A DNA stretch of 64,000 nt from Geosiphon pyriformis uo1 (taxonomy: Eukaryota; Fungi; Glomeromycota), in the NCBI GenBank assembly GCA_016748015.1, contig JAAOMT010000439.1, positions 455,527 to 519,526 on the forward strand, given 5' to 3'. The first letter of the stretch is position 1; each line of letters opens with the position of its first letter. The position numbers were made by a program, and so were the translations under genes. Positions 4,032-62,329 of this stretch are shown one piece after another. The notes below the pieces were generated by a model. The model worked only from the letters and a program-made list of their open reading frames with translations, ran no database searches and was not told where the DNA came from.

Positions 4032-5564
4032 ACATTTTAGATGAATAGCATTGCCAATTTTAATTCTTGGAATATGTCTTTGACAATGCTTTTTTGAATG
4101 TTATGCACCTGATTGTGATAGAAGATTTTCTTGGTGTGGTTTCAGATTTGTCTGATAATAAAGCTGCTGGCCTTTCTGGTATTACAAATGAACTATAGAA
4201 ACATTGTAACAAGTTTGTTCTGGATTCACTTTTGGTGCTTTTGAATTTTTGTTTAATTTGTGGATCTGTTCTGGGTTCTTGAAAAGAGGCCTGGGTATCT
4301 ATAATTCCTAAACCCTATAACTGGAAGGGGGTTCTTACAAACACCCAACTCATAGCACTAATTGAAACTGCCTGTAAGATTCTTTCTAAGATCCTCTCTG
4401 ATAGGATCTCCATGGCATGTAGTAAGTATGACATTCTTCATGGTAACAACTTTTCAGTTTTTAAAGGTACAACAATGCAGTCTCTTATTTTTGTTATTGG
4501 TTTGGTGGTTGAAGATGTTTTGGAAAAGAATTGTGAACTTTGGTTAGTTTTGCAAGACATGAAGAAAGCATATAACTCAATTGGTTGGGAACATTTGAGA
4601 AGAAGTTTGGTCAAAATCAAAATGTGCAATAGATTTATAAGATTTTTTGGGAGTATTCACGATGGTTGCATGAACAGAATGATGACTGATTTTGGGCTAA
4701 CTGATGAGTATAGTGTTCATAATGGCTTAGATCAGGGAGAAGTGTTCTCATCTCTCCTTTGGTGTATTTTTTATGACACTTTGCTGTGCAAGGTAAAAAG
4801 ACAAGAGACAGTATATGGTTATAGACTAAATTTGTATTATGTTGTCAAGTCTGGTCGCATTGATTCTCAAGATAGTTTGACCTCTTTTCTTGCTGTGGGT
4901 GCATTTGTTGATAAGTTGGTTCTAGTCAGGCGGCTACACAATACATTCTCAATGTTGCCAGTGAATTTTTCAGGATGAATGATATCTCGATTAACAACAA
5001 CAAAACTGTAGTAATCCCAATTAATTGCAGAGTGATGGCTCCTTTTTTATCTGTCTGTGGTGCTCCTATTTCCATCACCAAAAAAAGAACATCTCACTGA
5101 TATCTGGGAATTTTTTTTTCCTCTGATGGATTATCTAAGTCTAGCCTGGCTAAAGCACATTTGAATATATAGTTTTTTGCCAATTTTGTTCTAAGAAAAG
5201 CTATTTCGAATAAACAGTTCTCTTATTTGGTTTTGGCTGTTCTTCATTCTATCATTGGTTATAGGATTCAGTTTAGCTTCATTTCTGTTAGTGTGTGCTG
5301 AAAGTGGAATGTTTTAATTCGGAAGGGCCTGAAATTGAAATTGGGTCTGCCTCTGGACTTTCCTAATAATGTTTTGCACTATTCTTTATTTTATAGCTTA
5401 AAGACTTTTGAGCAGATCCAAGCCAAAGACAAGATTGCTGCTGTGGTGTGTTTCACCAACTCTGTTGGGGTTTTGGGCCAATTGTTCAAGCATAGGTTGC
5501 ATAACTTACAAGTCATAAGTTGGTGTTCAGTGTATTCCTTGTGCTCCCCTGTTTGCATTAGTGT
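4032..5564 (+). pseudogene. LINE (non-LTR retrotransposon) ORF2 fragment 1: reverse transcriptase
   Basis: LINE RT motifs LQDMKKAYNSI, NGLDQGEVFSSLLW and AFVD(D); the second Asp is lost to a small deletion near 4912. Reading continues across insertion B at TSD gtgt. Confidence 0.88.
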
Positions 5565-6543
5565 TGTTACTGGAGGTTTTTGGTCTCTTCTTAGCTCTTG
5601 TATATTTGTTGTAATGCTGTTAATTCATGACTATGGGAAGTGTCTGAACCTCCGATAACTGAATTTTATCTTCAAATTATCTCTTATAATTTGAACTGCT
5701 GGGCTTATAAGTGGAATGGCCAATTCCATGCCAGTTGCTTTATGTAGTTACATTGTGGTAAATGTCAACTTTTTTCCAGGTAATGCTCATCTGGAAGCTT
5801 ACTAAAATGTGTAGTTACTTTACTGTGAAAGTCAACTCTTCTACAAGAATTCTTGTCTGTAGACTACTCAAATAATTTATAATAAGAAAAGAAAGAGAAT
5901 AAAAGAAATGTAAAGGAAAAATAAAACTGATGATTTATGGAAGTCGTTTTGAATCCAGGTCTGGAAGTGTTTTAACAGTTTACTGAAATTAGTAACTAGT
6001 CAAACTGTTTAGTAGGAATTGGTTAATTTCAAGGGAAATAATTAAGAATTTGATTTTTCGAATTATTTGATATTTATTTCATTTCTGTGTGTAAAGAATA
6101 ATTCTAATTGATAAATCTGAGGTAAGATATATTTTCTCAAAAAGAGAAGCTCTTCTTTTATACAATTTGTTGTAACACTATTCTATGAACTCGAACTTTG
6201 CTATTTTCTACAATTTTGTTGAACTAAAGATACATTTTGGTAAACTACAAATTATTTCTGTGAACTATTAGATATTTCAGTGAACTATCAATTATTTTGG
6301 CAAATTTCTACAAATTTTGGTGAACTTTTTGAATGTTACATAGTTTGGAGTATTGCATGATTGATCATCGCAATTAGGTTAGATTTGTGTTATATACAAA
6401 TTGGGTTATTAATTAAATGATAATTTTGAACATTTTGCTAATATAATAAGTAATAATTTGAAATGATAATATATGCTAATTGATGATAGGAATTATAAAG
6501 ATAATTTTATGCTAAATAATATCTCTAATTTCGTCTAGTAACA
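5565..6543 (-). repeat. 3' LTR of copy B
   Basis: tgttac...agtaaca; PPT at about 6544-6560; homologous to 13857-14387. Confidence 0.92.
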
Positions 6544-7232
6544 TAATCTCCTCCTCAAAACTGAACTCTGTCGAAGTCCAAGTACTGTCTGTAATTTTCA
6601 GATAGTAATCCAAAATTATTGAAAAAATTTGGTCTGAAAATTGTTGAAATTTCAGTTCTGTGAGCTTTTCAATGTATTGAATCTTCAAAGGTTGTAAAAT
6701 TGGGTTTTGTAGGATACTTTTACAGGTGTGAAATAGGTCATAAAGTCTAAGAGCAGCTCTTAGTTTATAGTGACTGTTTGTAGATCCAGCTGTTGTTTTG
6801 AATTTATTGTGAAGTTGTTTCTGAATAGCTTCTTTTGTAAGATTTGCTGCTATAAGCTCCCGTTTTCATTCGTGAAGTGTTTTTCCAATGTAGAAATATC
6901 TATATATTGGAGTATAGTTGTGGTTTTCTTTATTAAGACACAGTTGAAGTTTTTGTTAAATAGTAGCATTTGGTGGAATACTAATAAGAATGAACATTAA
7001 ATTTTCTTTTAAAGCAAGCTTCAAAAGTTCTGGTAAATGAATTCCAGAATAACTTCTTGTATTCTTTCTATAAGAGTAATACTTTCGTGAATTTGGGATT
7101 AGATTTGTAACTACTTCTGTTTGAGTATAATTAATATGTTTTCCAGTGATAGTAATGGATAATTCAAGTATTGTTTTTAAAGCTAACATTAATTTTTGAG
7201 ATAACTGTTGAATATTTTGAGAGATAGTTATT
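6505..7232 (-). pseudogene. Copy B ORF3 (accessory protein of unknown function)
   Basis: MLALKTILELSITITG... and ...LRAALRLYDLFHTCK...YIEKLTELKFQQF, homologous to ORF3 of C, E, F; frameshifted. Confidence 0.8.
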
Positions 7233-7388
7233 ATAATAAAATTGGAAAAATAAAATTGAAATTATTTTTGGTATGTGGGTTTTTATGTTATTTTTTTTTT
7301 TGTTTTTCAGCATACTTTGTTTTGTTTTTTGTTTTTTTTTGTAATATTTTTTTTCTAAATTATAAGAGAATAACTATAGTAATTGAAA

Positions 7389-8775
7389 TTAAGTGTTCAA
7401 GTTGGGGGGTTGTTCAATAACAACTATTGGTTCTAAGTTTCGGAGAATATCTTTGGAATTGATTAAAAAAGAATGTGTACCAATTTGTGGAATTAATGGT
7501 TTAGAATTGTTTCTAGAATTATAGTGTTTCAAATGATCTCCATGTGCAACTTTTGCTAGGATTTTGTTATCAAGTCTTAGCTTGTATAATCCATTGCCTA
7601 GAACTTCATGGATAAAGAATGGCCCATCCCATTTATTTTCGAATTTTTCACTCCATTGTTTTTCAGCTTTAGTTCTGTGTAAGAAAACTTTGTTTCCAAC
7701 TTTAAATTCATTGGTGACTGGAGGCAATTTGTTGTTATGTCATTTTTTTTGTTGAGCTTGGAAGTGTTCAATATGAGTGACTGCTATTTGTCGTTTTCTT
7801 TCCAACATGCTAAGCAGAGTATAGGCTCTTTGTTGAAGTGTTTCCTGGAAATTGTTTTTATCAATTGGTTGTGCTGGGTATGTTTCTACTGTGAAACTAA
7901 TTGGTAATGTTGCTGTCCTTCTATAAGTTAAATCAAATGGTGTGTGTTTTGTGGTATTTTGTTTTAGTGTTCTGGATGCTAGTAACATTGATAGAATAAA
8001 GATATTCCATTCTTGCTCAAAATTGGTTAAGACTTTGGCTAATAACTCACACAATGTTCTGTTAAAACGTTCTACAAGTTTGTTTGTCTGTGAATGGTAG
8101 GACAAAGACAAAGGTCTTTTGACATTAAATTGTTCACAGATTTCTTGAATTAGATTGTTCATGAAATGTGTTCTTTGATCAGATAAAAGTTCGATTGGGC
8201 ATCCATGTCTACAGATAATGTCTTTATAAATGAAATTTGCTACTAATTTTGCATCTGTTTATTGAATGGCTCTGGCTTCGGGCCATTTAGTAAGATAGTC
8301 TACAGCTACTGCAATATAATGGTTTTCTTGGTTTGTGATAGATAGTGGTCTGACTAAATTAATACCAACTTAGTCAAAAGACTGTCCAACTTTGATTGAG
8401 TTTAAAAGGTTCTATAGAGCGAGTTTCTTCTTTTTTTTGACAACTATTACAAAATTTAACATATTCATAAATGTCTTTTTTTATTCAAGGCCAAAAGTAA
8501 TATTTTAGTGTTCTCTGGGTGGTGCTGTCTTTTCCTAGATGTGCTGATAAAGAATCCGAGTGCATGTTGTATAAAATAGTTTCTTTTTTATGTTCTTGTA
8601 TTAATTTGAGCAAACTGTTTGGGTTTTTAAAGTTTTGATAATAAATAATATTGTTGTGTAAGAAGTATTATTTGGCTTGTTGTTGTAACTAACGTTTTTC
8701 ATCTGGGGACCAATCTGTTGGGATTGTTAATGTCTCCAGATATTGTTTAAGATTGTTGTAGTTTTTGGGTTTCAT
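7389..8775 (-). pseudogene. Copy B integrase ORF (HHCC, DDE, GPF)
   Basis: ATG at 8775; LVERFNRTL, KWDGPFFIHEV, C-terminal LEPIVVIEQ; several stops. Confidence 0.9.
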
Positions 8776-8824
8776 TGTTTGTTGTTTTGTTGCTGTTAAT
8801 TTAAATGGGTGTTGGTTTTGTTTT

Positions 8825-11800
8825 CTAATCTTGTCTCATTCTTGAGAGACAATCAACATTGGTGTGGAGTTTTCCTGGTTTGTGGTGTACAATATATTGG
8901 TAGTTGGCTAAAAATTCTGTCCATCAGGTTTGTTTTGTGTTCAGTTGGGTGTTTTTGTTCTGAAGCCATTTGAGTCCAATATTATCAGTGATAATATCGA
9001 ATTCTTTAGGCCTGAGATAAAGGTTGAAGTGGTGTAAGGCCCAAATTATGGCTGCTGTTTCTAGTTCTGTGGCAGGATAGTTTTTCTCGGCTGGTTTTAA
9101 TGTTCTGCTAGCATAAGCGATTACTCGCTCATTTCCATTGTCATTTAATTGTGATAAAATGGCACCAAAGACAGTGTAAGAAGTGTCTGTAGCTAGTCGA
9201 AATCGGTTATTGAAGTCTGAGTAGGCTAGAATTGGAGCTGTTGTCAGCTTTTTCTTGAGAATTTCAAAAGCTTTTTGGTGTTCTTCCGCCCATTTGTATT
9301 CGACATTTTTAGTAGTCAGCTGGTTGAGGGATTTTGCAATTTCTAAGAATTTTTTGATGAATTTTTGGTAATAGGAAGCTAATCCAATAAATTCTCTCAA
9401 TTCTGTGGTATTTTGTGGAGTCTTGAAGTTCTTGACAGTGCTGATTTTTCTGGGGTCTGGTTTAATTCCATCTTTGCTTACAATGTGGCCAAGAAAGGCC
9501 AAACTTGTTTTTCCAAAGTAGCATTTTTCGATGTTTAGTTTCAATTCTGCTTTTCATAATCGTTGAAAAACTTCTTGCAGGTGTTTTAAGTGTAATTCAA
9601 AAGATGATAAATAAACATCAGTATTATCGAGATAGACAACTACTGATTTCCAAAGGAGACCTTTGTAAACAACATCTATGAGTCTTTAGAATGTTGTTGG
9701 TGCATTGCATAATCCGAAAGACATTATGTTGAACTCATAATTTCCTCCTTGAGTGGTAAATGCTATTTTGGGACAATTTTTGGGATCCATGGCAACTTGC
9801 CAGTATTCACTCTCTAAATCTAATGTCGAGAAGTATTTGGATTTCCTAAGGGCATCTAACATGTCATCGATTTGGAAAAGAGGGTAGGCATCTCCAATGG
9901 TGATGCTGTTAAGTTGTCGATAATCAACACAAAATCATATCTTTCCATTTTTTTTTTAACTAGGACCACAGGTGAAGCCCATGAACTCATCAATGGTTAA
10001 ATAAGCCTATTGTTAAGCATTCATTGCACTTCTTCTTGGATAAATTGGTGACTTTCTGGAGCAACTCGGTAGGCTTGTTGTTGCCTTGGTTTGGCATCTC
10101 CTATATAGATTTGGTGTTGAACTAAATCGGTTCTTCCTAAGTCATTGTTGTTTTTGGCAAAGATATCGGCAAATTCTGCAATTAGCTCTTTGAGCTGGTT
10201 TTGTTGTTGTGGTTTAAGTTGTCCCATGTTGATTTGAGATAGTTTTTCTATGACAACATGATAGTTTTCAAAACTGGGATTTGGGTTGATTTTTAGTAGT
10301 AAATGTTCAATGATTTCTGAAAAATTGGGAACTGTCTGGAGTAATTCTTGTTAAAAGATATTACTGTGAATAACTCCAATTTCTATGTTATTTAATAAAA
10401 CTATGAGGTAACTGTTGGGATTGTAAAAAGTAACTCAGACTTTTTTTGTTCTTTCTGGAATGTAAATATTTGGGATCAAGATATTATGTTCTGAGCAGAT
10501 TTGTTTGTTGAACTCAAAAATTTGTTGTGTGGTTATTAACTTTGGGCAGGTGTAGATTTCTGGATGTTCTCCAAAGGGTGAAATAGTAATTGGTTGTAGA
10601 AGTCATAGAATCTGGTAAGCTTCATTTTGTTCGTTAAGAGTTATGTTTATTGAAACTGTGAATTGTCCAGTTGAACCAAAACCTTTGGTTCCTCTTTTAC
10701 TCTTTTCCAATTGTTCTCTTTGACTGACTAATTGTAAACCCGAAATGTTGATTAAGGGTAAATAAATAGCTTGAGCAATTTTTTCGGCATGTTCAATCTG
10801 AAAAGGTTTATTGGTTTCATTTTGTAACATGATTATAATGTCTCCTGTATATTCTGCATCTATGATTCCTCCTCTAACATTAATTCCTTTGCTCGCCAAT
10901 GATGATTGTGAAGCAATTTGGATCATTGTTCTTGGTGGGATTTCAAGAGCAATTTTGAGGTTAATTTTTGTGAGTGATTTAGGTTTGAGAGTAAGGATAT
11001 CTTTTCCTGGATATCTTAGATTGTATCCAGCATTAATTTCATGGGTTTTTTCAGGCTTTATTCCTTGTTCATTGTTGTTGAAGTATTTGAGTTGTGAAGC
11101 AGGCTGATTTTTGATGAAATAGATGGGTGTGGCTTCTATTTCTTCTGTTGCTTTAAATTCTTCAAATTCAATTTCATATTCATCACTTTCACTGGGCAAG
11201 AGAATGCTAAGAGCATAGCATTCAAGACACCATTATTTATCACAAGAAATTATGTATTCTTCACATAATTTAATGTTCATTTGCTCTAGCCATTGAGCTT
11301 GAGCTTCTTTGGTCAGGTAGGTGTGACTGGCAATTTGGTGATATACTTTTACTTCATCTTTGTAGTTGTATCCAATGATTTCAAAGGTGTATGTAATGTA
11401 TTCTGATTCTTTTATTTGATGAACATTTTCTTGAGTGGCTCTGTTAATTAATGCCATTGCTAAGTCAAAAATTATCTCAGTATTATGGGGGTAGTAATAA
11501 AGTTTGTTAAGAGCACTGTTGTATGCCGCATCAAAGAGTGTTCCTCTTTTAACTTTTTCTGAAATTAATAAAGCATATTGGTAGGTCTGATTGCAGACTT
11601 CTCCTTTCATTGCTACATCAATCTAATTGCATTCTTCTGGTAGCATATCTCCACAAGTCAAACAAGGGATGTTGTTCTATTTTCTGCTTCTTTTTATTAG
11701 ATGGCCCCATTGTTCTCTGTGGCAAGCCTTGCAGTAATAACAAGTATGATTTTCATATTCTTCTTTAGGTGAAATGCAGGCTCTTATTAATAAAAGTTTC

Positions 11801-13856
11801 TTGTGGCAATCTTTGTATTTAAAGGAAATGTAAGGGTGTTGTTTCCTTGGTTCAGACTTTGAATAAGAGATATTCCATTCAGGAGTTTCAGGTTTAGAGT
11901 GTGGAGTAAAATGTTCTTGTTCAGTTTCATTGGCCCAATTGGACATTGATCCAAGAGCCATAAATGTTTCAATTATTGGTTTTTCTTCTTCTGGTTCGAA
12001 TTCAAAAGCCGGGGCTTTTTCAGAGTGTTTGTTGAATGTACCACAAATGGCAGGTACTCAGGCATGTTGTCCTTGATAAGAGATTTGTAGTTCTTGGGTT
12101 TTCCAGTCTAATTTTGCATTGGCTTTTTGAAACCAGTCATTTCTGACAAGGGCTTGATACTGAGGAGCATCCATTACAAGAACTTTGACTGAAATGGTGA
12201 TTCCATTAAAAGTGAATGGAAAATTGTCAATTTCTCCTACTGGAGTCTTTTTCATGTCATTGGCAGTAACAATAATTGTCTGAGCTGGTTGGTTAACATT
12301 TTTTTTTAACTGTTGTATCAACTGATAAGTAATAATACTTCCAGCGGATCTACTGTTTAGGATTAAGCAAATTGTTTTTCCTTTAACTTTAGCTTCAGTA
12401 TACATAGCTGTGATTGCTTTCTGTTCATTTGCACCAGTATTGCTGAGTAGAAATGGTGATTTATTGGCTTTGAACTCGAAAGGAAAGATATTAGAGAGAT
12501 TGGCGTTTTCAGCAATTCTGGCTGGTAGAATAGTGGTGTGGTTATAAGAAGGATTTTGTTGTTGTGCTGCAGCTCTACCTTCCAAGAGTGCAATATGGTG
12601 AAAATCCTGTTCTTCTGGCATTGTTAAATAACTGGGTTGAGTGTAATAGTGGTTGAGTCTTGGTTGAGCAGAATTTTGGAGAACCAATTGGTTGTTTGAA
12701 CTGATTCTATTGTTGTTTACTTGGTATCAGTTTTGTGGTGTGAATTGATTTTGTGTAATCAATTTTCGAGCAGGTACTTGATAATGTTTTGTGGGTGGTT
12801 GTTGGTATTGCTGTTGGATTGGCTGTGGGGCAGACTAATAATAGTTATTTTGGTATTGGGGTCTTGTTGGATAGTAAGCTGATGATGGTGGTTGATAATA
12901 AGATTGCTGTGATGGAAGATAACATTAATTATTCCTCTGTTGTTGGTTTCATTGCAATTTTCTACAATTGCATTTCCAGTGTCCTGAAATTCCACAATAA
13001 TGACAATTTTGGATTTGGTTGTTGGGTGGTTGTCCAAAGTTGTTTTGAATGCGTCATTGTGGAGGTTGATATCTTTGTGGTTGTTGTAATTGCTGTGGCT
13101 ACTGTTGTTGCTGCTGGTTGGTGAAGTAGTTTTCAACTTTTTTGGTTAATTGGTCAATCTTTTCTTCAGCTGCTGAGCTGGTTTCTCCAATAGCCAGGTT
13201 AACAAGTTTGGTATGGTTGGCTTCTTCCATGGTCATTTCATAGTTTTTTGCCTGTTGAATAGCAGTGGCTAAATCTTTTGGTGCATGTGGGTGAACTTTC
13301 TTGATGAGTTTGTCTTTTAGTCCAGCAATGAATTGATCCAAAATTTGTGCATTGGAGTAGTATTCATTGGTTTCCAATTGGCAAATTCTTTTAAGCAGTT
13401 TGTTGAATTTCCCAAGATAGGTTATAACTGATTTACTTGGTTCTTGCTTGATATTTCGGAACCAATTTCGAAGGGTAATGGAAGTGTTATTGTCAGTGAA
13501 CTGTTCTAGAAAAGCAGTTTTGAATGTTTCCCAGTGTTCTGATAAGACTTCCATGTTTTCAAACCATTTATCAGCCATTCCTTATAAGAAGTATGGAATT
13601 GCTTTTAACATTCTGGCAGTGTTTCAACCATTTGCATCTCCTGCTTTTGAGACTTTGTCAAGCCATTCTTGAGGACTGGTTTCACTGTCTTCTCCTGTGA
13701 ACTCAGGGATTTTTGCAATATATATGGAGGCCATTTCTTCTTTGTTTTTTGAGTCTTCTGTTTCTTGTTCTGATTTAGTTTCTTCACTTTCTAAGCTTTC
13801 TGAATGATTAGTTTTATTTTTCTGTAGGTAATCAAAAAGGTTGGTGCTAGTTGATA
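8825..13856 (-). pseudogene. pol: Copy B ORF1 (Gag C-half, PR, Cys-rich domain, dUTPase, RT, RNase H)
   Basis: ORFs 13099-13578 (capsid), 12058-12687 (PR), 10603-11199 (dUTPase, RGTKGFGSTG), 8924-9544 (RT/RH, IAYASR, ELE); ends SRMRQD-TAG at 8825-8827. Confidence 0.9.
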
Positions 13857-14387
13857 TAGGAATTGGTTAATTTCAAGGAAAATAATTAAGAATTTGATTT
13901 TTTGAATTATTTGATATTTATTTTGTTTCTGCGTGTAAAGAATGATTCTAATTGATAAATCTAAGGTAAGATATATTTTCTCGAAAAGAGAAGCTTTTCT
14001 TTTATACAATTTGTTATAACACTATTCTATGAACTCGAACTTTGCTATTTTCTACAATTTCATTAAACTAAAGATATATTTTGGCAAACTACAAGTTATT
14101 TCTGCAAACTATTAGATATTTCAGTGAACTATCAATTATTTTGGCAAATTTCTACAAATTTCAATGAACTTTTTAAATTTTACATAGTTCAGGGTATTAC
14201 ATAATTGATCATTGCAATTAGATTACATTTGTGTTATGTACAAATTGGGTTATTAATTAAATAATAATTTTGGACATTTTGCTAATGTAATAAATGATAA
14301 TTTGAAATGATAATATATGCTAATTGATGATAAAAATTATAAAGATAATTTCATGCTAAATAATATCTCTAATTTTGTCTGGTAACA
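13857..14387 (-). repeat. Truncated 5' LTR of copy B (U3 half only)
   Basis: Matches 6013-6543; fused directly to mid-gag sequence (ttgata|taggaattgg). Confidence 0.88.
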
Positions 14388-15244
14388 GTGTTAATCTTTT
14401 GAACAACTTCCTGGTGGGTGTGGTTTGGGTCTTTTTCAGTTCTGGTTTATTTTTAGGCAATTTTAAGTGTAATGCTTTTTACTTTTAGTGTGGAACTCCT
14501 TTATCTGGTGTTCTTGGTGAGTCTATGTATTTCAGGTGCCTTCCCTCTCTTCGTCATTATGAAATTGCTTTTGTTGAGCAGCTTCAGTACTGTGATGGAG
14601 CTGTTTTCGACTAGAAGACTTTCAAGCAGTGGAAGAGACTTGACTCATGTGGTTCTGTTCCTGTCTGGTTTGGTGCTGCCATTTGGCATCTTCATAATTT
14701 TGGTTCTCTTAATGTTTGCTCTTTTTTTCTAGACAGTGCTGTTGCAAAAAACATTCTTAAATCTCATAAGTTTAGGACAATACATAATCAATTGTTTAGC
14801 ATTAGTGCCTCTGGCTTTTCTGTGTACACAAATGGTTCTTTTTGTGGTCTAGGGAGTGTTAATATAAAAGCTGGTGCTGTTGTGTTTTTCGAGAACATTG
14901 ACTTAGGTCTTGGGATAGAAGTAATTGGTATAGTGTCTTTTACATTGGCAGAGCTTCAAGCCATAGCTTTGGCCCTTGAGTGTGTGCCTAATTTGAGTTT
15001 GGTCTGTTTATTCTCTAACAGCCAAGCTGTCTTGGATGTGTGTAGAACTGAATTATTATTGTTGATTCTGGATTTCCAGAACAAATATTGAGTTAAACAT
15101 TAACACATCACTGGCATCATATGTAAAAGAAATTTGAATGTTGGCTGGTATAAGATTAAAGAACACTCAGGTGTTATGGGTAATGTGCAGGCTGATTTGC
15201 TTGCTGGTGTCTTTTTTCATTCAGTCTGGCTCTTTTTCCCCTGG
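14388..15244 (+). pseudogene. LINE ORF2 fragment 2: RNase H
   Basis: VYTNGS (decayed VYTDGS), AELQAIALALE, FSNSQAVLD, KIKEHSG..GNVQADLLA are RNase HI motifs. Confidence 0.87.
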
Positions 15245-16237
15245 TATTACTGGAGATTTTTGGTCTCTTTTTTTGAATGTTGTAAATGTTGATTTGCTGT
15301 GAATTTACGTTTTCTAAAAGTAGTTGAACCTCCAATAACTGAATTTATCTTCAAATTATCTTCTATAATTTGAACTGCTGGGCTTATAAGTGGAATGACC
15401 AATTTCTTGCCAGTTACTTTATGTAGTTACGTTGTAGTAAATGTCAACTCTTTCCCAAAAATTGCTTGTCTGGAAGCTCACTAAAAATGTGTAGTTACTT
15501 TGCTGTAAAAATCAACTCTTCTACAAGAATTTTGTCTGTAGACTACCCTAATGATTGTAATAAGAAAAGAAAAGAAAAATAAAAGAAATGTAAAAGAAAT
15601 AAGATTTTATCAAGGGAAATGTTTTCTATCCAGGCCTGGAGTTACTAACAGTTTATTGAAATTGGTAGCTAATCAATTTCAAAACATTAGTTGGATTTTG
15701 GGGATTTTCCAAGTGCAATAATTAAAGAATTTGGTTTTTTGAATTATTTGATATTTATTTCTTTTTGTGTGTGTAGGAATAGTTTTAAGTGATAAATCTA
15801 AAGTAAAATATTTTTTTTTGAAGAGAAAAGCTCTTTTTTTATACAACTTGTTGTAGTACTAGTCTATGAACTTGCACTTTTTCTCTTTGCTCAAATTTTG
15901 GCAAACTAAAGATATATTTTGATGAACTACAAGTTATTTTTGCTGAACTATTGATTAATTTGGGTGAACTATTCATAATTTTGGCGAATTTCTTATAAAT
16001 TTCGGCAAATTTCTGTAAATTTCGGCGAATTTTAGAATGTTACAAAGTTCAGAGTATTGTGTAATTTGATCATCCTACTTTCTGTTATACTAATTAGATT
16101 ATTTTAATTGAATCGTAATATGTGATAATTGATTAAATAATAAATGATAATTTGAAATAATATTAATATACTAATTAATTATAGGAATTATAAGGGTAAT
16201 TTCATGTTAATTAATAGCTAAAATTTTACTGGTAACA
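15245..16237 (-). repeat. 3' LTR of copy C
   Basis: tattac...ggtaaca, direct repeat of 24171-25178. Confidence 0.93.
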
Positions 16238-16926
16238 TAATCTCCTTCTCAAAACTGAGCTCTGTCGAAGTCCAAGTACTATCTGTAATATTGAGATAGT
16301 AATCCAAAATAATTGAAGTAATCTGGTCTGAAAATTGTTGAAATTTCAGTTCTGTGAGTTTGCCAATGTATTGGACTTTCATTGGTTGCAGTATTGGATT
16401 TTGTAGAACATTTTCACAAGTATTAAACAAATTATAGAGTCTAAAAGCTGCTCTAAGTTTGTAGCAAGTATTTGTTGGTCCAGCTGCTGTTTTGAATTCA
16501 TTGTGAATTTGTTTTTGTATAGCTTTAAGAGTGAAATTTGTTGCTTCAAGTTCCAGTTTTTGTTCATAAAGTATCTTTCCAATATGAAAGTATTTATAGA
16601 TAGAGATGTGTTCATTGTTTTGTTCATTGAGAAGTAGTAGAAGTTTTTGTTGCATTGTAGCATTTGGTGAAATGTCAATAGGAGCAATTAAAAAATTTTC
16701 TTCCAGTGCTTGTTTCAAAAGTCTTGGTAATCTATTTTCCGAGTGACTTCTTGTTTTTCTTCTATAAGGATAATAGTTCTGTGAATGATTTGCTACTGGG
16801 GCTGTGGTTTCTTTCTGAATGTAATTAATTTGACTTCCATTAATCATTATGGATAAGTCAAAAAATGTTTTCAAGGCTAATATTAACTTTTGGGATATTT
16901 GTTGAATATTTTGGGGAATAATTATG
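16218..16926 (-). CDS. Copy C ORF3, accessory protein of about 230 aa (most intact copy)
   Basis: 218-aa open ORF 16218-16874; upstream codons align with the F ORF3 start; runs through the PPT into the LTR. Confidence 0.8.
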
Positions 16927-17047
16927 GTAAAATTGACTAATTATGAAAATAGAGAATAAAGAAAATTATTTTTGGGTATGAGGTTTTTATTTTGTAATTA
17001 TTTACTATTTTTGTCTTTGTGTTTTTATTAAAGAATTATTGTAAAAT

Positions 17048-27044: not shown

Positions 27045-27087
27045 ATTATAAATTCACAGAGACAGAGCATCTCAGAGATACACAAAA

Positions 27088-50328: not shown

Positions 50329-51215
50329 TGTTACAGGTGATTATTTCTGCAGTTGAATTAAATAACAAACCCGTAACTTGGTGCTCAAAAGCTATTTCCA
50401 TTGATGATGTTCTGTAAGTGTTGTATTTGAAGGTTTTGATGGGTCTGAAGGTTTTGGTTGAGTCCTTTGTATAATAGACAGAGATTCAATAGTGTCAATA
50501 ATAGATGTATCTTTCCAAGAGTTTTCCTAATTTCTTTCTCAGCGTGGTGGCTGGATTTAGTCTGGCAGTCATGCTCTTCTGGTAAACTATCCGATAATAT
50601 ATAAAATTCTACTCTTATTTCTGGGTCTTTTATCAGGCTATCTTTGACGTCAATGACTCAGCGCTTAATCTTTTTAATCAGTTAGTATACAACAACAAAT
50701 CAAAATAAAATAAAGAAAAAGAAATAAAAGAAAAATAAAGAAAGAAAGAAATAAGCCAAGGTGATTTTGCAGATTAGTATCCTGTCAATAGCCATGATCA
50801 AGAGCTATTGTTCCAGCATGGTTAAGTATCAATTACTATCAACATGAAGTGTTAATAATGGAGAGTGGGTTGAAATATGGAATAATTATTTATTTGATGA
50901 TTGTGTTTTCTAGACTAAAGATTCTGTGGTATTGATTCTGTCTTTTCTGTTTCTAATACTACTGCTATATATACATAATTGAGATTCCTCAATTTCTCGA
51001 TTCTTCACAACAGGAATCCTGGAATTCTTGGAATCCTGCGATTCCTTTGAGAGGAATCCTGAAATTCTGGAATCTTGCAATTCCTTGTTGGGAATCCTGA
51101 AATTTCTGGAATCCTGCAATTCCTAAGAGGAATCCTAGAATTCCACATTTATTATGCTTACTTCTGATTGGCTAATAATTATGCTAATATATTTGCTATA
51201 TTTCTATGAGTAACA
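50329..51215 (-). repeat. 3' LTR of G (887 bp)
   Basis: tgttac...gtaaca; direct repeat of 59640-60448 plus 78 bp of extra tandem array. Confidence 0.94.
50981..51145 (-). repeat. GGAAT(T/C)CC array (about 9-bp unit, about 39-bp higher-order unit) in U3 of G
   Basis: ggaatcctggaattcttggaatcctgcgattcc repeated; TATATATA lies just downstream on the minus strand (50966-50973). Confidence 0.88.
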
Positions 51216-51229
51216 TTATTCCCTCCTTT

Positions 51230-51889
51230 TTAATATTGAGCTCCATTGAAATCTAACTCATGTAATTCCCCTTCTTGAAGTATTTCCTGGATTTTGTTTT
51301 CGAGAATTACTTGTGTTATTTGGGTCTGTAATTTTTCAAATTGAGCATTGGTGATTTTCCCCAGTTGATTACTGGTAACCATATCTATTGCTCTGTTGTG
51401 TAATATTTCTGGTTTATTTTAAAATGCTGTGTGTATTCGGTATATGGCTTAGGCTTGTGTAGATAAGTTGTTCTTTCCCACAAAATGTTCTAATTGTTGT
51501 AGTATTCTTTTGTCAAATAATTGCTTTGTTTTATCTGTATATAGATTCTGAATATTTACGTGTTGTCCCAAATAGAAATAACAATAGTTTTGTGGGAATT
51601 GTTGTATCCACCAATTCCAAGTTTCTTTAGTCAACTCTTGATATAGTAACTCTTTTGTCGATTTTTTTATTGCTAATTTTACTTTCGCCATGATTTTGTC
51701 CACAGTATTTTCAGTTTTCTTCTGTGTTCTGAATTGAAATGTTTTTCTAGTATCTTAATATCGAATAGTTTGTTGATTGATTGTAATTTCCATTTCCTGG
51801 TGTTGGATTAATTGAAAGAGTTGTTGTGCTAGTGAGTGAATGTTGTCTGTAATTTTCATTTTTCTGATATTTCCTGTCGCGTCTACCAT
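51230..51889 (-). pseudogene. G ORF3
   Basis: MKITDNIHSLAQQLFQLI...CYFYLGQ...AIYRIHTAF...QLGKITNAQFEKLQTQI; divergent homolog of the C/E/F ORF3; contains TAA stops. Confidence 0.78.
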
Positions 51890-51913
51890 GTCTTTATATA
51901 TTCTTTTGATGGA

Positions 51914-53296
51914 TCAATTTAATGTGTTGTTGTCGATAATAATGATTGGTTCCAGATCTTGTGGAATCTCATTTGGTTGGACTAGTATTCTCTGTACTCC
52001 TAATTGTGGAATATTACTGGTAGATGATAGTGTGATGTTGTGATATGGTTTCAGTCGATCTTCATGTGCTGCTTTAATTAAAATTTTGTTATCCAATTTT
52101 AATTTGTAAGCTTCATTTCCTAGAATTTCTTCTATGTGAAATGGTCCATCCCATTTGGGGTCAAATTTTCTACTCCATTGTTTTTCCGCTTTGGTACGAT
52201 GTAGTAATACTTTGTCTCTGATCTTGAATTCAACTGGTTTGTCTGGTAGTTGACTATCGTGTCTTTCTTTCTGTGTTTCTTGTGACTTTTGGATATTATC
52301 AGCTGCTCTTCTTCATTTGTTTTCCAATGTTTCCATTAAGTCATATGTTCTTCTCAGCAATGTTTCTTGAAAATTTTCTTCTGTTATTGGTTCAGCTGGA
52401 TATGTGTTAATTTTTCTCTCTACTGGTAACATTGCTATTCTCCCGTATACTAATTCAAATGGTGTTGCTTGTGTAGTATCTTGTTTCATTGTTTGATAAG
52501 CAAATAGTATTGATGGTATGAACAAATCCCAATTGTTCTGGTTTTCTTGGTTGAGCTTGGCTATTGCTTCACACAATGTTCTGTTGAATCTTTCTACTAA
52601 TCCGTTGGTTTGTGGATGGTATGGTGATAATAATAGTCTCTTAATTCTGAATCTTTGGCTCAATTCTGTTAATGTTCTGTTCACAAAATGAGTTCCTTGA
52701 TCTGATAATAATTCTTTTGGACATCCATGTCGACAAATCAAATCCTGATGAATGAATTCGGCAACAGATTCTGCATCTGCTTTTTGAATTGCTTTTGCCT
52801 CTGGCCATTTAGTGAAATAGTTTATAGCTACTGCTATGTATCTGTTTCCTCTGCTGGTAATTGTTAATGGTCTGACTAAATCAATTCCCATATGGTCAAA
52901 TAGTTGTCCCACTTTGATTGGTCTTAATGGTTCACTGGGTCTTGTTCCTCCTCTTCACTGACAAGCATCACAATTTTGAATATATTGAATGATGTCTGGG
53001 TATATTAATGGCCAATAGTATTTTTTTCTAGTTCTTTCCATGGTTGTTTCTTTGTGAAAATGTTCTGCTGTTGGATTTGAATGCATGTTGAATAATATTG
53101 TCTCTTTTTCTGGCTCTGTGATTACTCTGGTTGGTTGATTTGGATCTCTTCTATTTTTCCGATAAAGTATATTTTGGTAAGTAATAAAATATTTTGATTG
53201 TTGTTTGATACTCTTTTGTTCCATATGAGATAAATTCTTCTTGAACTGTTGAGTATTTAGATAATGTTGTAATTGTTGATATTTTTGTATGTTCAT
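51914..53296 (-). pseudogene. G integrase ORF
   Basis: ATG 53296; MHSNPTAEHF..CDAC, GIDLV, SDQG, LVERFN, KWDGPF, DLEPIIIID. Confidence 0.92.
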
Positions 53297-53359
53297 CTTT
53301 TGTTGTATTTTTCTGTTGGTATTGTTCTGGTTTTATTATATTTTTGGATTGAAATGTTC

Positions 53360-56300
53360 TTAGATTTGTCTTATTCATGATAAACCATCAGCATTTCCAT
53401 TGTCTTTTCCCTTTTTGTAATGTATAGTATAATTGTATGGTGTGAGTGTCATTTTCCATCTTGACTGTCTTCCATTTCCAAATTCTTGTTTTTGAAGTGA
53501 TGTCAATCCCTTGTGATCTGTGTATACTTCAAACTTCTGGCTCAAGTATTTTTTCCATTTCATGACAGCCCAGTATATTGCTAAGTGTTCTTGTTCCAGT
53601 GTTCCATAGTTCTTTTTGGCTGGTATTAAACCTCTGCTGGCATATACTACTGGATGTTTTCTGCCGTCTGGTCCTCTCTGAGATAATACTGCTCCCAATG
53701 CTTGGCCGGATGCATCAGTGGTGATGATGAATAGTTTGCTGTAATCTGGATAGATCAGCACTGGAGCTTGGATAAGCTTTTTCCTCAGAATATCAAAAGC
53801 TTTTTGTTGACTTTCTGTTCATTCATATTTTGCATTTTTGTTTTGTAGTTAATTGAGTGGCTGCATTATCTTGGAAAAGTTCTTGATAAAATGATGATAG
53901 TAGCTGGCAAATCCCAAGAATGATTTCAGTTCTATTATATTGGTCGGTATTGGAAAGTTCTTTACTATCTCTATTTTCTCTGAATCTGTTTTGATGCCAT
54001 CTTTGCTGACTATGTGTCCCAAGAATTTGAGTTCTGTCTTGTCAAAGAAGCACTTTGTCGCATTTAGCTTTAGTCCTGCTCTTCTTAGTCTTTCGAACAC
54101 TTATTGAAGATAATAAAGATGATTATCAAATGTCTTTGAAAATACATTGGTGTTGTCCAAGTATACAACTACTGATTTCCACAATAAGCCTGTATAAACA
54201 ATTTCCATTAGCCATTGGAAAGTCACTGGGGCATTGGTTAAGCCGAATGGCATTACTTCAAATTCGAAATTCCTTTCTCTAGTAGTAAATGCCGTCTTCT
54301 TTTTGTCAGCTGGATTCATGGCTATTTGCCAGTAGCCACTGTCTAAATCTAATGTAGAGAACCATTTATTCCCACCAAAAGCATCGAATAATTCTTGTAT
54401 TCGTGGAGTTAGATAACTGTTTCCACGAGTTACACCATTGAGTTTTCTGTAGTCCACACAAAACTGGATTTTTCTATTTTTCTTATGGACAAGTACCACT
54501 GGTAACAATCATGGACTCATTGATGGTTGAATTAACCTGTTATCAAGCATTCTGTTATCTCTTGACAAATAATCTCATGGCTGGCTGGCAGCACTCTGTA
54601 TGCTCTTTGTTTGATTGGCATTGTATCTCTAGTCTTGATCTGATGCTGGATGATGTTAGTTTGGCCAAACTCATTTTTGCTGACAAAGATGTTGTTGAAA
54701 TTGTTGAGTAACATCTTGAGCTGCATACATTGGAGTGGATCTAAGTTTCCCATGTTCATTTGTTCTAATTGTTTTGGTTGAAACAAATAACATTCGTCTT
54801 GTCCATAGATTGTTTGTGATGTGATGTCAACATATCCACAAAGTTGTGGAAAGTCTGGAATGGGGTTTGGTAGTTGGTTCTCTATTTCTGTGGTCAAATA
54901 TCTGATGGTGGTTCCTTTTGGTATGCTGATGACATTGCCAGTATTGTTGTAGATGAGAATTTTTATGCTGCTATAGCTTTTGGCTGGTATGTAGAGATTG
55001 ATCAATCCAATCTCTCCCGATTCACAAAGGGTTGCTTCTGCTTCAAACATCTGTTCTTGCTCTTTTTCTTTCCTTTCTATTGCTAACATGTACTGGCTAT
55101 ATGGTGGAATAGAAATAGCTTGACCAGTTAAGATAATTTTTCCTTGGCCAACAATTTTTTCCTCTGCCATGTTAACTGGTACATCTATTCTACTTGTGAA
55201 TCCAAATCCTTGTATTCCTCTCGCCATTATTCCTAATTCCTCCCTCTTTCCCACTGATACTAACTGAGCTATTCTAACCAGAGGCAGGAATATTGCCTGT
55301 GCTATCTTTTCATTGGGCTCTATTACATAGGCCTTTTCTGAGTTATTTTATAGCATAGAGATGATATTTCCTACATATTCCGCATCAATTATTCCTCCTC
55401 TTATATTAATTCCTCTTTTCACTAAACTACTCCTAGATGCTAGTTGAACCATGGTTGTTGCTGGAATTTCTAGTGCTATTTTCAGATCAATGCAGGTGCG
55501 TGAATGTGGTTCCAGTTTGATGGCATCTTTTCTTGGATATCTCAGATTAAACCCTGCATCAGTATCATGCACCCGTTCTGGCATAATATCTTTCCCATTG
55601 TCACTATACCATTTCAACTCTTGTTCCTTGGAAAGATCTGGTAGTGCAATGTATTGTTCATAGTTTACATTGGAGTTTGTATCTGAGTTGGAATCATTGT
55701 CATTGTCATTGCCCTTTTGAACAGAGCTTGAATCATTGTTGTCATCATCATTGTCAGAGTTTGAATCATGATTGATCGGTGATTCTGATTCTGATGCGCA
55801 GCTGCTGATTGGTTCTTTCTCTTCCAGGATCGTGTAGATCATGCATGGTGGTGGATTGTAAATGAGGTCACACTCATCGCAATACTGGAAGTCACAGAGA
55901 ATTAGGCAGTATTGACATAGTCAAGCATTCAACTGCTCTAACCATTGTTCTTGTTCTTCCCTTGTAGGTGCTAATTCTTGATAGTGTTCATGGAATTGTT
56001 CCAGGTCCAGGAAGTTTATGATAGGTTCCGCATCCCAGTCAAGCTCTAAAGGTTCTGGGGGGTTGTCTTTGATCGTTTTTATCTCTTCTGGTGTCACCCC
56101 TTCAATTTTTGCAAGTGCCATTTGCCAAATTTTGTCGTCGTCATGTGGGTAACTGTCTAATCACTGTACTGCTTTTCTCCAGGCTGTTTCTATTGGGGTT
56201 CCTTTCTTTACCCAATCACTTATTAGAATCGTGTATTGACACAATATGTCACATATTTCTCTACGTCCAGAAATGTCATGCCACATTCCTTCATCCAAGA

Positions 56301-59300
56301 GAGTCTCTCTACAAGTTAAGCATGGCTGATTGTCCTATTCCCCTACTCGTTTTGGTCTTCCAAAGCGTTCAAGGATGCATGGGCGGCAATAGAACCTAGT
56401 TGCTATTGAATATTCCTCATCGTCCCTACAGCATGCGCCCATTGACAACAATTTCTTACCACAATTGACGCAGATAAGCTTGGATTAACGATAGATAGAT
56501 TGTTGTGGTGTAGTGTAGGTGTTATAAGCAGTAGTGGTTTGAGTGGTCTCTTTGTCTTTTCCCTTCCCTTTATTTTTATTGTCTTCTTTCCATTCCCAAC
56601 TTGAAGTTGGTTCGCTCTTGTCGTGGTCAGTCCACGTCAGATCATCGGTTTTCTAGGTAAGTTCTTCCTTTTGTTTCCCTTTTTCTTAATAGTTGTTGTC
56701 CCAGGAGAGTATTGGCAGCAGCTCATTGTGCTCTTTGTTAGCCCACAATACTTGGTAGGCTTCCCAGATAGGCTTTTCTTTCTCCTCTTCCAGCTCGATC
56801 AATAGTTTCTCTCTTGGAGGAGTTTTGAAGTGGCCACATATGGCTGGAACACGTATGTGTTGGCCCTGATACATTAGCTGGAGTTCCTGGGTGTTCCAGT
56901 TTAATGTTGCGTTGGCTTTGGATAGCCAGTCATTACCAATGAGAGCTTGGTATTGAGTAGCTTCCATTACTAGAACTTTAATGAAAGTCATGATGCCATT
57001 GACTTCAAAAGGGAAATCATCGATTTTGCCAATTGGAGTTTTGGTCGCTCTATTGGCTGTGATGATTTTGGCGCTGGCAGTTCGATCAACTTGGTGACCT
57101 AATTAATCCATGAGTTGTCTAGTGATTATGCTGCCAGCTGATCCACTATCTAGGATGAGTTTGATGGAGTGACCATCAACTCTGGCATCTATGTACATGG
57201 CTGTTATGAGTTTCTCTTCGAGGGTGGCTCCACTGAATAACAGTATTGTTGTGTTTTCTTCGAGTTCAAAAGGAAAGATGGCTGCTAGGGATTTATTGCT
57301 AGAGATGGTTGTCAGTGGAATAGTGTTGGTAGGTATGTGCTGATTGAATTCTGTGTTGTTGGAGGTGGTGTTTTCTGGGGTAACTAGGAAACTTAAATAA
57401 TGTTGAGAATTTGGGTTTTGGACGTGACTGGTATCCAAATTCCAGGTGCGTGATCCTGATGGTGAGTTTAGTGAACTGAGAATCGGTTGGTGAACAACTA
57501 TTGCCGATCTCTAGTTTTGAGTGACTCTGGATCGAGGGTTGTCTGATGTCATTTGAGCTGGGTTCTAGGTTGGTGTTTGAATTGGTTGGGATTGATAGAT
57601 AATTTGTGGCTGTGATTAATATATTACTTGTGGCTGTGGCTGATAAATCAGAGGTTAATACACTGGTGGGTGATAGATTGGTTGCTGCGTCATGGGCAGG
57701 TAATTATTTTGATATTGGTCTTGATTCTGATTTGGATAATAATTCAGAGTTTGGAACTGACAATCGGGGTTTTGATATTGATTTTCTGATCATTGATTAT
57801 TTAGATGCTGATGACAATCAATTTGGATATGTTCTTGTTTGCCACAATAGTGGCAAATATGCATTTCCTGTTGCCACTGTTGATTGGTTGATGAAGATAG
57901 GCATGGTTGATTTTGGCCACAATTAGAGTTTCCTTGATTATTGCATTGTTGTGGAGGCTGATAAATGGTGTGATTGTTAGCTAAGTATCCTTTCAATCTC
58001 TTATTAATTGATTCACTGAACTTCTCCAATTTGGAATCCAATTCAGATGATTCGTTTATGACTAGATTAATGACTTGGGCATGGTTAGCCTCTGACTCGG
58101 CAGATTCAAAATCTCTGGCATGTGTGACTGCATCTTGAAGCATGCCAGGATGCAATGGACATACATGTTGCAAGATGCTGTTGCACAGGCCACAGATAAA
58201 CTGATTGAGTATTTGTGGTACTGTGAAATAATTGGCATCAATTGCTTGAATTTGGCGTAGGTTTCGATGGAAGCGTTCCAGATAAATAGTGACTGCTTTA
58301 GTTTCTCCTTGTTTTATGGTGGTGAATGCATTAATTAGGTAATTGATGCTATTATTGTTGCTGAAGTATCTCAGAAATTCCACTTTGAAGGCATTGAAAT
58401 CTTGTGGTTTATTAATCAAGCTCTGGTACCATGAATCGACGGTATCCTTGAGAAAGTAGGGAATGGCTTGTATTGCTTGTGCATCATTCCATCCATTGGC
58501 TGCAATGGCTTTTTCTACATTATTCAGCCATATTTGAATGTCATTCTCTTCACCAGTAAAGTTGTCAAGTTTTGTGATTGGTGCATAGGCCATTGGATTT
58601 AAGTTAAGTAGTTGTGGTGGCTGTTGAAGCAGTTGTTGTTGTCCTGGCTGTTGGGGTGGTAGCTGAAGTGGCTGTTATATGGGTTCGGTTATGGGATTAA
58701 TTGGCGGTTGATTGATGATGATTACTGGAGGTAAGTTTTGCTGATTAATTAATTCAGGTCCTTAATTTCTTTGATTTGACAGCGTTCGAATATTCGGAGT
58801 TTTAATTTCCGGATTTTCTAACTGTTGCTGAGTTTGAAGGTTCGGGGTTTCAACTTCCGGGTTTTCAGTAATTAGGTGCTGGTAAGTGAATTCTTGATCC
58901 TTTGATTCTTCTTCCTCCTTTTCTGATTTCACTGCTTCCCACAGATCAGAGATTCCGAAATCTGGTGGAGGCGGTGGTGATCAAAGTCCTGATGGGGTTG
59001 ATGATTGCGAATTAAATCTCTTAAAGTACTTGCTGTATGGTCCTAACAATTTTGTTTTCCTTTGTCTACTTTGGAATGGGAATTGTCCAAATGCTAATGT
59101 CGTAGTTGATGTGAACACGTCTGTTGATGATATGTTGATGGCACTTCCAAGTATATAGTGGTAGGATAGGTTGCTTGGAGATTCAACTCTGTTTTTCTTT
59201 CAAGCAGGTGGCTGTATCTTTCTGGGTGTTACTGCTGGTGTTTGTAATTTTCTCTTGCCTTTACTAGCATATGTAATTGGATATTTTTGTTAAGTGTGAT

Positions 59301-59577
59301 GTTCAATTTCTTTGTTGATCTCAGTGATGATGAATGTGAAATTATGATTTATTGGCAGGTTGGTATTTTGAATTAATTCCCTATAGAAAGTTTCTCTTGC
59401 TGATTCAGTATTCACTAGTGTTCCTAATAAAAAAGAAATCTTTTCGTTGACGTAAAAATTGAAAGCTGATTCGGCAGATATATGATTGTGGTTTAATCCC
59501 AAGTATTGACAATAGTGTTGAAATAAGGATTTTGCAAATCCTAAATGGTTTGCTTCTATAGTTTCTGATTCTGCCAC
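53360..59577 (-). pseudogene. pol: G ORF1 (Gag-CCHC-PR-Cys-rich domain-dUTPase-RT-RNase H)
   Basis: aaaaGTGgca at 59577; MAYAPITKL at 58593; LILDSGSAG, DAGFNL/SRSS/IDAEY, YLDN, TDASG; ends S(R)IRQI-TAA at 53360-53362. Confidence 0.92.
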
Positions 59578-59639
59578 TTTTGGTTTGGTGTTGTCAGTAC
59601 TGGTTCTCTGTAGGATTATACCTCACAGAGAGCACTAAA

Positions 59640-60448
59640 TGTTACAGATGATTATTTCTGCAGTTGAATTAAATAACAAACCTGTAACTTGGTGCTCAAA
59701 AGCTATTTCCATTGATGATGTTCTGTAAGTGTTGTATCTGAAGGTTTTGATGGGTCTAAAGGTTTTGGTTGAGTCTTTTGTATAATGGACAAAGATTCAA
59801 TAGTGTCGATAATAGATATATCTTTCCAAGAGTTTTCCCAATTTCTTTTTCAGTGTGGTGGTCAGATTTAGTCTGGCAGTCGTGCCTTTCTGGTAAGCTA
59901 TCCGATAATATATAAAATTCTACCCTTATTTCTGGGTCTTTTACCAGGCTATCTTTGACGTCAATAACTCAGCACTTAATCTTTTTAATCAGTTAGTATA
60001 CAACAACAAATCAAAATAAAATAAAGAAAAAGAAATAAAAGAAAAATAAAGAAAGAAAGAAATAAGCCAAGGCGATTTTGCAGATTAGTATCCCATCAAT
60101 AGCCGTGATCAAGAGCTATTGTTCCAGTGTGGTTAAGTATCAATTACTATCAATATGAAGTGTTGATAGTGAAGAGTGGGTTGAGATATAGAATAATTAT
60201 TTATTTGATGATTGTGTTTTTTAGGCTAAGGATTCTGTGGTATTGATTCTGTCTTTTCTGTTTCTAACACTACTGCTATATATACATAATTGAGATTTCT
60301 CAATTCCTCGATTCTTCACAACAGGAATCCTGGAATTCCTGAAATCCTGCAATTTCTGAAAGAAATCCTGGAATTCCACATTTACTATGCTTACTTCTGA
60401 TTGGCTAATAATTATGCTAATATATTTTCTATATTTCTATGAGTAACA
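59640..60448 (-). repeat. 5' LTR of G (809 bp)
   Basis: tgttac...gtaaca; adjacent to the PBS. Confidence 0.94.
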
Positions 60449-62329
60449 CCGAGAAGAATTAGGTCTCACTGCTCAAGGAATCAACGGGTTTGGATCAAAT
60501 GGAAGAGAAAACGTACCAGTTAATTTCATGGAGGAAGACAGTAACCAGGTAGAATTTATCTACACTGATACTGTCATCTCTATTCCCTCATACTGACAAT
60601 ACATCCTTAAGGTAAATTGAAAGATCCAAGATCAAGCCCTGTTATTTGAAGCCAGTTCTGAAATCTGTTCCTTAGCTGATGTTGCTAATCTATATCTACC
60701 AGCCAAAGCCCATAAACACTTCAAAATCCCCATCCACAACCCAACAGAAGATGTTATTGAAATCTCCGAAGGGATCCTTATTAATTCTATATCCGCAGAT
60801 ATTCAGAATTCTGAAAAACCACAATCTATTCCAGATTTCGCACAATTATTCTTATTCTGTGACATTACCTCACAAGTATAGAATTTGCCAAAAAAAATTT
60901 ACTTGTTCACACCAGAAGAGATTAATAAATTGAATTTAAGAAACTTAAGTACTCTGCAACAAATGTAACTCAAAATCCTTCTGAATCAGTATGCCAATGT
61001 CTTTGCTAGCAAAAATGAGTTCGGACGCACCGACATCATAAAGCATTAGATTGATATGGGAAATGCTTGACTGATTAAGCAATGAACTTATTGCATACTC
61101 CTATCTAGCAATAACCTCATTAAGTAAGAAGTGCAATAGATGCTTGATAATAACCTAATTAAAGAATTGTTAAGTCTTTGGTCCTCTTCAGTAGTCTTGG
61201 TTATCAAGAAAAATGGAAAAGTGCAATTCTACATAAACTACAAGAAACTAAACAGTGTTATGCGAGGAGATAATTATCCCACTTCCTTCATCCAGGAAAT
61301 TTTGGACAATCTAGGGAAAAAGAAATGGTTCTCGTTATTAGATTTAGCAAGTGGTTACTGGCAAGTTGAAATGGACCCCAAAGACAAAAAAAAAACAGCA
61401 TTTATTATTCGAGATAAAAACTTCAAGTTTAACATAATGCTTTTTGAACTTTGTAATACTCCTGCCACATTTTAATATCTGATGGATGTAGTATACAAAA
61501 GAATCCTTTGGAAATCAGTAGTAGTCTATCTAGACAACACAAATGTGTTCTCCGAAACATTTGATGACTATTTGCTCTACCTGCAACAAGTTTTTGAATG
61601 TCTTTGTAGTGCCGAATTGAAACTTAATCTTAAGAAGTGCTTCTTTAGAAAAACTGAGTTAAAGTTTCTAGGACATGTAATCGGCAAGGACAGAGTTAAA
61701 CCTAATTCAGATAAAGTACAAAAAGTCAAGGATTTTCTAGCTCCAATCAACTTCAAAGAATTACGAGAATTTCTAGAATTGGCAGAATATTATCATCAAT
61801 TTGTTAAAGGTTTTTTGAATATCACTAAACCATTCCATCAATTGTTGTCCAAATATGTACTATACTTGTAAAAGGAAGACCAACAGAAAGCATTCGACTA
61901 TCTCAAGCAGCGATTGATTACATCCCCAATTCTGATTTATCCAGATTTTACTAACGGTTCATTGTCACTACAAATGCCTTGAAAAATGCTCTAAGAGCAG
62001 TCTTATCACAGATAGGACTGGACAATAGAGAACATCCAATTGTCTACACTAGTTGCAGCACTAGCCCAACAGAAAAGAATTACAGCACAACAGATCTGGA
62101 ATGTCTTGCCATTTATTGGGCCATACAGACTTGGAAACATTATCTCAGTTAACTATTTGACCTATATATTGACCACAAAGAACTTATTTGGTTACTCAAT
62201 AATCCACAACTAGAAGGAAAGTATACAAGATGGAGTACTTATCTGCAACAATTCTTACTTAAAGTCTATTACAAGGAAGAATCCAAGAACACCAATGCTG
62301 ACAGTTTGTCGAGGATGCTACAAACCTAA
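60449..62329 (+). pseudogene. pol: H ORF1 fragment: dUTPase motif 5, spacer domain, RT, RNase H
   Basis: GINGFGS, LDLASGYWQ, VVVYLDN; ends SRMLQT-TAA at 62327-62329. Confidence 0.88.

Follow-up and report, generated by a model that had tools for sequence, protein, structure and literature searches.

In a 64,000-nucleotide stretch of the Geosiphon pyriformis uo1 genome (contig JAAOMT010000439.1, positions 455,527 to 519,526 of the forward strand; the whole of it is called the window below), nested Ty3/Gypsy long terminal repeat (LTR) retrotransposons, here elements A, B, C, E, F, G and H, appear to share an unusual target site. We consider it probable that this single Gypsy lineage has an integrase that favours 4-bp targets with a central CG, recognised by direct readout of the DNA, and that deamination later hides the CG. 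Such recognition would resemble that of Ginger1 transposases, and CpG deamination would have turned most of the duplicated CGs to TG or CA, independently in each copy. Methylation would be required for this decay and not for targeting.

Self-comparison and Pfam searches identified Ty3/Gypsy elements with gag, protease (PR), dUTPase, reverse transcriptase (RT), RNase H (RH) and integrase (IN) in the window. Their membership is supported by paired direct LTRs of the TG...CA type with a primer-binding site (PBS) and polypurine tract (PPT), by the gag-PR-RT-RH-IN order and by a GPY/F motif; Ty3-G is the best solved relative. LTR ends of the form TGTTA/TATTA...TAACA/TAATA, with PBS and PPT on their inner sides, define the element boundaries, which are flanked by 4-bp target-site duplications (TSDs). 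Three TSD pairs have TG at the centre of one copy and CA at the centre of the other: CTGG (15241-15244) and TCAG (25179-25182) around C, CTGG (28037-28040) and CCAG (37788-37791) around E, and TTGT (38080-38083) and CCAT (47660-47663) around F. A fourth pair, around G, retains an intact CG in both copies (CCGA, 50325-50328 and 60449-60452), so four of the five pairs have CG-diagnostic centres. The remaining pair, GTGT on both sides of B (5561-5564 and 14388-14391), is TG/TG and not diagnostic; A and H have single flanks, ACAT (4032-4035), whose central CA is compatible with CG without being diagnostic, and TTGG (26002-26005), directly before the LTR that starts at 26006. A sequence-only reading of this DNA had quoted all of these flanks exactly as they are present and had proposed N-CG-N at every TSD. 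A CG ancestor is upheld for C, E, F and G, with CCGG, CCGG and CCGT as the probable ancestral sites of C, E and F; A, B and H are compatible with it. The frame in which the host is read at E, F and C is consistent with a 4-bp duplication, and a 5-bp TSD is ruled out by the flanks together with the host frames.

As an age-matched null we used the sister LTRs of these elements, in five pairs (4181 dinucleotide columns, 943 of them pyrimidine-purine, or YR). Divergence within the pairs is 4.8-7.9%, with transitions making up 243 of the 254 mismatches. The C/T mismatch frequency is 0.63 at CpG, 0.23 at CpC, 0.14 at CpT and 0.13 at CpA, and among polarised changes C>T/G>A occurs 144 times and the opposite direction 41 times. 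Because the C/T mismatch is highest at CpG and C>T/G>A changes exceed the reverse, a TG/CA pair points to a CG ancestor. Columns reading CG/CG, CG/TG, CA/CG or CA/TG make up 58 of the 4181, and CA/TG alone 14 of the 4181. The probability that at least four of five TSD pairs would fall in the CG-diagnostic classes is 1.8e-7, or 6.8e-5 within the 943 YR columns; both values are post hoc, with the choice of the central position uncorrected. We hold it as a strong conclusion that CG was present at insertion for C, E, F and G.

The mismatch spectrum also bears on the cause of decay. In repeat-induced point mutation (RIP) of the CpA type, C>T changes are concentrated at CpA, and RIP of this kind was rejected as the cause of the mismatches given the low CpA frequency relative to CpG. 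C>T is elevated in every context, with 96% transitions, which exceeds CpG decay and is unlike CpA-type RIP.

A broader preference could produce some of the same flanks. PFV integrase follows a central-YR rule, and an integrase that favours any flexible central YR, with CG enrichment partial at most and five pairs overstating CG, is an alternative that we regard as unlikely. We compared the two possibilities with a model of decay that had been fitted to LTR data, under four background and reverse-rate settings and with and without flanks from outside the window. All-CG targets are favoured over any-YR targets by a likelihood ratio of 455-7,447, so the individual flanks disfavour a pure YR preference by the same factor. 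For the share of CG among targets the interval is 0.44-1, and its lower end leaves room for a mixed preference. Central TA occurs in 0 of 10 independent sites though it makes up 32% of YR steps in the window, which is 34% GC with CpG at 0.24 of expectation. The sequence-only reading had taken TA for the commonest YR step here, which the counts contradict (TG 4955, TA 4683, CA 4438, CG 445), and the absence of TA is therefore weaker evidence than it had supposed.

Uninterrupted copies of the host elements provide a second line of evidence. E and F lie inside H, and we compared 37 H-family proteins, with 22 rows placed at the E site and 3 of these dropped as misaligned. At the F site, 28 of 30 rows have R, C, H or Y (C 11, R 9, H 5, Y 3, other 2), which is the set of residues that a CGY codon yields on decay. 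The residue that follows the T codon at the E site is G or R in 17 of the 19 well-placed rows (T-G 9, T/I-R 8, K 1, E 1), and just 8 of 96 gag columns between the two sites vary equally. As judged from these protein alignments, the uninterrupted copies confirm CpG codons at E and F at the family level. For the insertions into the LINE that hosts the other elements, 120 proteins of mixed subfamilies were compared. The H flank codon reads S in 38 and L in 7 of 56 placed rows, as predicted for a TCG codon at the family level, and the two nearest homologues have W and R at the C-left codon. At the A site, 60 rows were placed (D-I 30, D-V 17), and at the G site host rows were placed for 3 of 40. 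Host residues and likelihood ratios thus agree with the CG-centred preference that the sequence-only reading had put forward; CG is dated to the time of insertion by the discordant TSD pairs only, not by the host residues.

In each of the elements E, F and G, the frame encoding RNase H closes with a stop and the integrase opens at its own Met (near 34650 in E and near 44430 in F). The integrase of G (51995-53296, minus strand) has its own Met, an H2C2 zinc finger, a DDE core, a GPF motif and an SH3 domain, and is interrupted by two internal stops. A separate integrase open reading frame (ORF) is also present in the six soil-metagenome relatives examined (L002, L003, L005, L009, L010 and L021). 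Many free-standing integrases of 410-440 aa, one of them from Paraglomus occultum, are among the best 150 of 75,169 matches, as is an integrase-Ulp1 protein (P0358) with the Ginger1 architecture. Pfam searches and examination of the window integrases found no chromo-, MBD- or PHD-type domain on them, and they thus lack the integrase chromodomain that defines chromoviruses; no C-terminal Ulp1 or OTU domain was found on them either.

We built trees from the zinc-finger and core region under LG+G4 and drew them with midpoint rooting; 36 of the 150 matches, which had short alignments, and the split integrase of element B were left out, and the careful tree has 49 rows. All five window integrases fall into a single clade (99/98). 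The three families across which the sequence-only reading had placed CpG-directed integration therefore count as a single origin and an inherited trait. Quick trees grouped the window integrases with free-standing, Ginger1-type and Athila/Tat-like rows (SH-aLRT 98), whereas in the careful tree the window, free-standing and Ginger1-type rows fall in a polytomy between two supported splits. P0358 belongs to this group as well. The labels Ginger1-type and Athila/Tat are our own and are based on domain content and characteristic motifs.

Several observations weigh against a CG-centred preference or against its kinship with Ginger1. There are only five TSD pairs, from one window, and they were picked once the pattern was noticed. 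Of 15 flank tetramers no more than 2 still have CG (P=0.048 given the decay rate of the LTRs), and of the 12 from the window alone, 2 (P=0.13); either CpGs decay faster in flanks than in LTRs, or the pooled contigs described next are older, or some targets were never CG. In the wider LINE family the most frequent residue at the C site is L (16/51). LINE residues at the A and B sites do not discriminate for or against CG; the proposal that restoring CG yields host codons holds in uninterrupted copies at E and F. The three Ginger1-type rows, none of them a named Ginger1, do not form the sister group of the window integrases. Finally, the outer TSD bases are looser, 4 of 10 being CCGG, CCGT or ACGG once CG is restored, versus 99% for Ginger1 in the available text of PMC2836005.

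Copies outside the window give weaker support. Contigs pooled at LTR ends were read as per-group majorities in five groups, two of which were dropped (38084, 23 contigs, PPT-dominated; 50328, 12 contigs, PBS). None of the three informative groups has a CG majority, which leaves N-CG-N at every TSD unproven outside the window. A group of 29 contigs reads TG, with G outnumbering the T of the PBS at flank position 3, a result with a simulated chance of 0.000 for random targets, 0.08-0.09 for any YR and 0.35-0.73 for CG. A group of 21 contigs reads CA (outward), where CG would be expected 9 times in 10 at the LTR decay level, and a group of 23 contigs at 80% likeness reads TA, a majority with a simulated chance of 0.87 for any YR and 0.001-0.36 for CG unless decay is near complete. 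All three majorities are YR, and the TA majority is what a general YR preference predicts; multiplied over the three groups, heavily decayed CG comes out about 4 times likelier than such a preference, which is itself likelier than CG decayed as far as in the LTRs. The pooled flanks reject random targets and hardly distinguish a decayed CG target from a general YR one. Together with the few individual flanks that keep CG, they are the chief evidence against a strong form of the CG preference. Three further single flanks from outside the window, GCAT (from one low-depth contig), ACAG and GCAC, all have central CA and none has TA. We have moderate confidence that the CG preference holds for most copies.

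It is very improbable that the pattern reflects chance or wrong boundaries, with TG/CA pairs as unrelated mutations or flanks that are not TSDs. Such an account draws on the post hoc nature of the pattern and on the three of five pairs that are non-identical, two of them with a second mismatch, but the boundaries are fixed by LTR ends, PBS and PPT, host peptides run on across the 4-bp duplication, and the pooled data reject random flanks.

A different role for CpG would place methylation at the targeting step. The sequence-only reading had suggested that CpG-directed integration steers copies into CpG-bearing, probably methylated transposable elements (TEs) and so explains the nesting. An integrase, or a partner of it, that favours methylated CpG would steer copies into silenced repeats, and all 7 window insertions indeed have another TE as host. 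The apparently greater decay of flank CpGs relative to LTR CpGs would likewise be expected of targets methylated before insertion, and TEs are high in mCG in a relative, Rhizophagus irregularis, according to the available part of 10.1101/2021.03.30.436303. We nonetheless judge this explanation improbable. The integrase has no chromodomain or other reader, and an extra ORF near the 3' end of several elements matches nothing in Pfam above cut-off or in the Atlas at or above 0.9. The hosts are CpG-poor (0.4% for the LINE, 0.7% for element H) and would not be favoured by a preference for sequence alone, and steering by methylation or by CpG-bearing TEs is not supported. Because the window is almost entirely repeat, nesting needs no targeting; it would likely reflect repeat abundance and selection. 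By analogy with Ginger1, CG readout may instead be intrinsic to the integrase and independent of methylation. A more elaborate proposal seems to us doubtful, namely that a widespread, undescribed Gypsy lineage with a separate integrase ORF is an LTR-bearing relative of Ginger1 and shares its CG target, and that the Geosiphon integrase favours methylated CpG and thereby directs the elements to silenced repeats with no chromodomain involved.

The nested structure is as follows. A degenerate LINE on the plus strand (4036-26001) is broken up by A, B, C and H into pieces at 4036-5560, 14392-15240 and 25183-26001. Element A (1-4031, minus strand) has a 5' LTR (3101-4031), gag and protease and extends past the window edge. 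Element B (5565-14387, minus strand; LTR divergence 7.9%) has a partly deleted 5' LTR (13857-14387); the deletion at 13852-13860 fused gag to the middle of this LTR and removed the PBS. Element C occupies 15245-25178 (minus strand; 5.8%). Element H (26006-64000, plus strand) has its 5' LTR at 26006-27026, followed by a PBS after 27026, extends past the window edge and hosts E (28041-37787, plus strand; 4.8%), F (38084-47659, plus strand; 6.5%) and G, of a second family (50329-60448, minus strand; 6.1%). The first 234 bp of the two E LTRs (28041-28273 versus 36808-37041) are 99% identical although the whole pair differs by 4.8%. Gene conversion may explain this, as may an LTR of recombinant origin, and dating by LTR divergence would then be biased. 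The extra ORF lies between the integrase and the 3' LTR and extends into the LTR (16218-16940, minus; 36267-36857, plus; 46004-46390, plus). Its best Atlas matches, at 0.75, are a viral coat cluster and a Mucoromycota hypothetical cluster, and we treat both as leads only.

Among the matches listed in three protein searches, 120/120, 40/40 and 120/120 are labelled Geosiphon pyriformis, and the available text of PMC11952901 records an LTR expansion in Geosiphonaceae. A pattern search for the LTR ends in metagenome and viral contigs gave 0 matches. There are 171 related loci, and among those scanned (up to L113 and at least 2.5 kb) no close relative has both element ends. Complete distant elements, outside the integrase group, have TSDs of CATA (L033) and CTAT (L094); others have 5 bp. 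Several Gypsy elements or integrases (L094, L095, L101-L103 and the P0326 cluster) are filed in bacterial or archaeal genome records, probably as eukaryotic bin contamination.

A CG-centred target in an LTR lineage is likely real, and would have several consequences. It would connect the target choice of an LTR retrotransposon with the question of Ginger1 origin, and the free-standing integrase ORF found in the window and in at least six soil-metagenome relatives would be a plausible intermediate toward Ginger1. LTR finders that demand identical TSDs fail on TSDs that decay at CpG rates. If true, methylation dependence would be a new route by which a transposon avoids genes, though it is unsupported so far.

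Drosophila Gypsy groups, as described in the available portions of PMC5408687 and PMC3276498, are also LTR elements with a 4-bp TSD and a palindromic, clade-inherited target (gypsy TATA, Idefix ATAT, ZAM CGCG), but their TSD centres are AT, TA or GC, in contrast to the probable CG of the window elements. Errantivirus integrases lack GPY/F in the same portion of PMC5408687, whereas the window integrases have GPF; no env was recognised in the window. Athila/Tat-like plant Gypsy elements share the broad integrase group in quick trees, as in the part of Bao et al. (PMC2836005) available to us, but split off at 100/97 in the careful tree, and the TSDs of three complete Tat-like loci (L046, L047 and L065) are 5 bp long and lack CG at the centre (ATAAG, CATCG and GGTCT). 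Fungal Gypsy elements with a dUTPase are known, with placement between PR and RT in Postia PosPlaTy3-5 (PMC2864245, available text), and this position is common to the window elements and those chromodomain-bearing elements; since the window elements lack a chromodomain, they have no known heterochromatin-targeting route. Our literature search, with most subscription journals and Repbase outside its reach, found no report of an N-CG-N TSD in an LTR element, which argues only weakly for novelty, and the available portions of PMC6839031, PMC12440569, PMC10045372, 10.1101/2025.05.19.654958 and PMC8699820 contain no LTR precedent for a CG target; that of PMC8699820 is also silent on the YR step.

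The closest parallel is provided by Ginger1. As far as the available text of PMC2836005 goes, Ginger1 has 4-bp TSDs (CCGG 75%, CCGT/ACGG 24%), TGTNR ends and a Gypsy-like integrase as its transposase, was found in four animals, and had no Gypsy lineage clustering with it with support. Measured against that description, the window elements likewise have a 4-bp TSD with a probable CG centre, TGTNR termini, H2C2, DDE and GPY/F motifs and an integrase as a free-standing ORF. A Y..P..Y..Y stretch that may correspond to the Ginger1 YPYY motif was matched by eye upstream of the zinc finger in E and F (G lacks the P). The window elements differ from Ginger1 in having direct LTRs rather than terminal inverted repeats, in encoding gag, PR, dUTPase, RT and RH, in lacking a Ulp1/OTU tail and in being fungal. 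The window elements are thus members of Ty3/Gypsy and not of Ginger1, though they likely target like Ginger1, whose precedent means that a CG-centred TSD preference is not new in kind.

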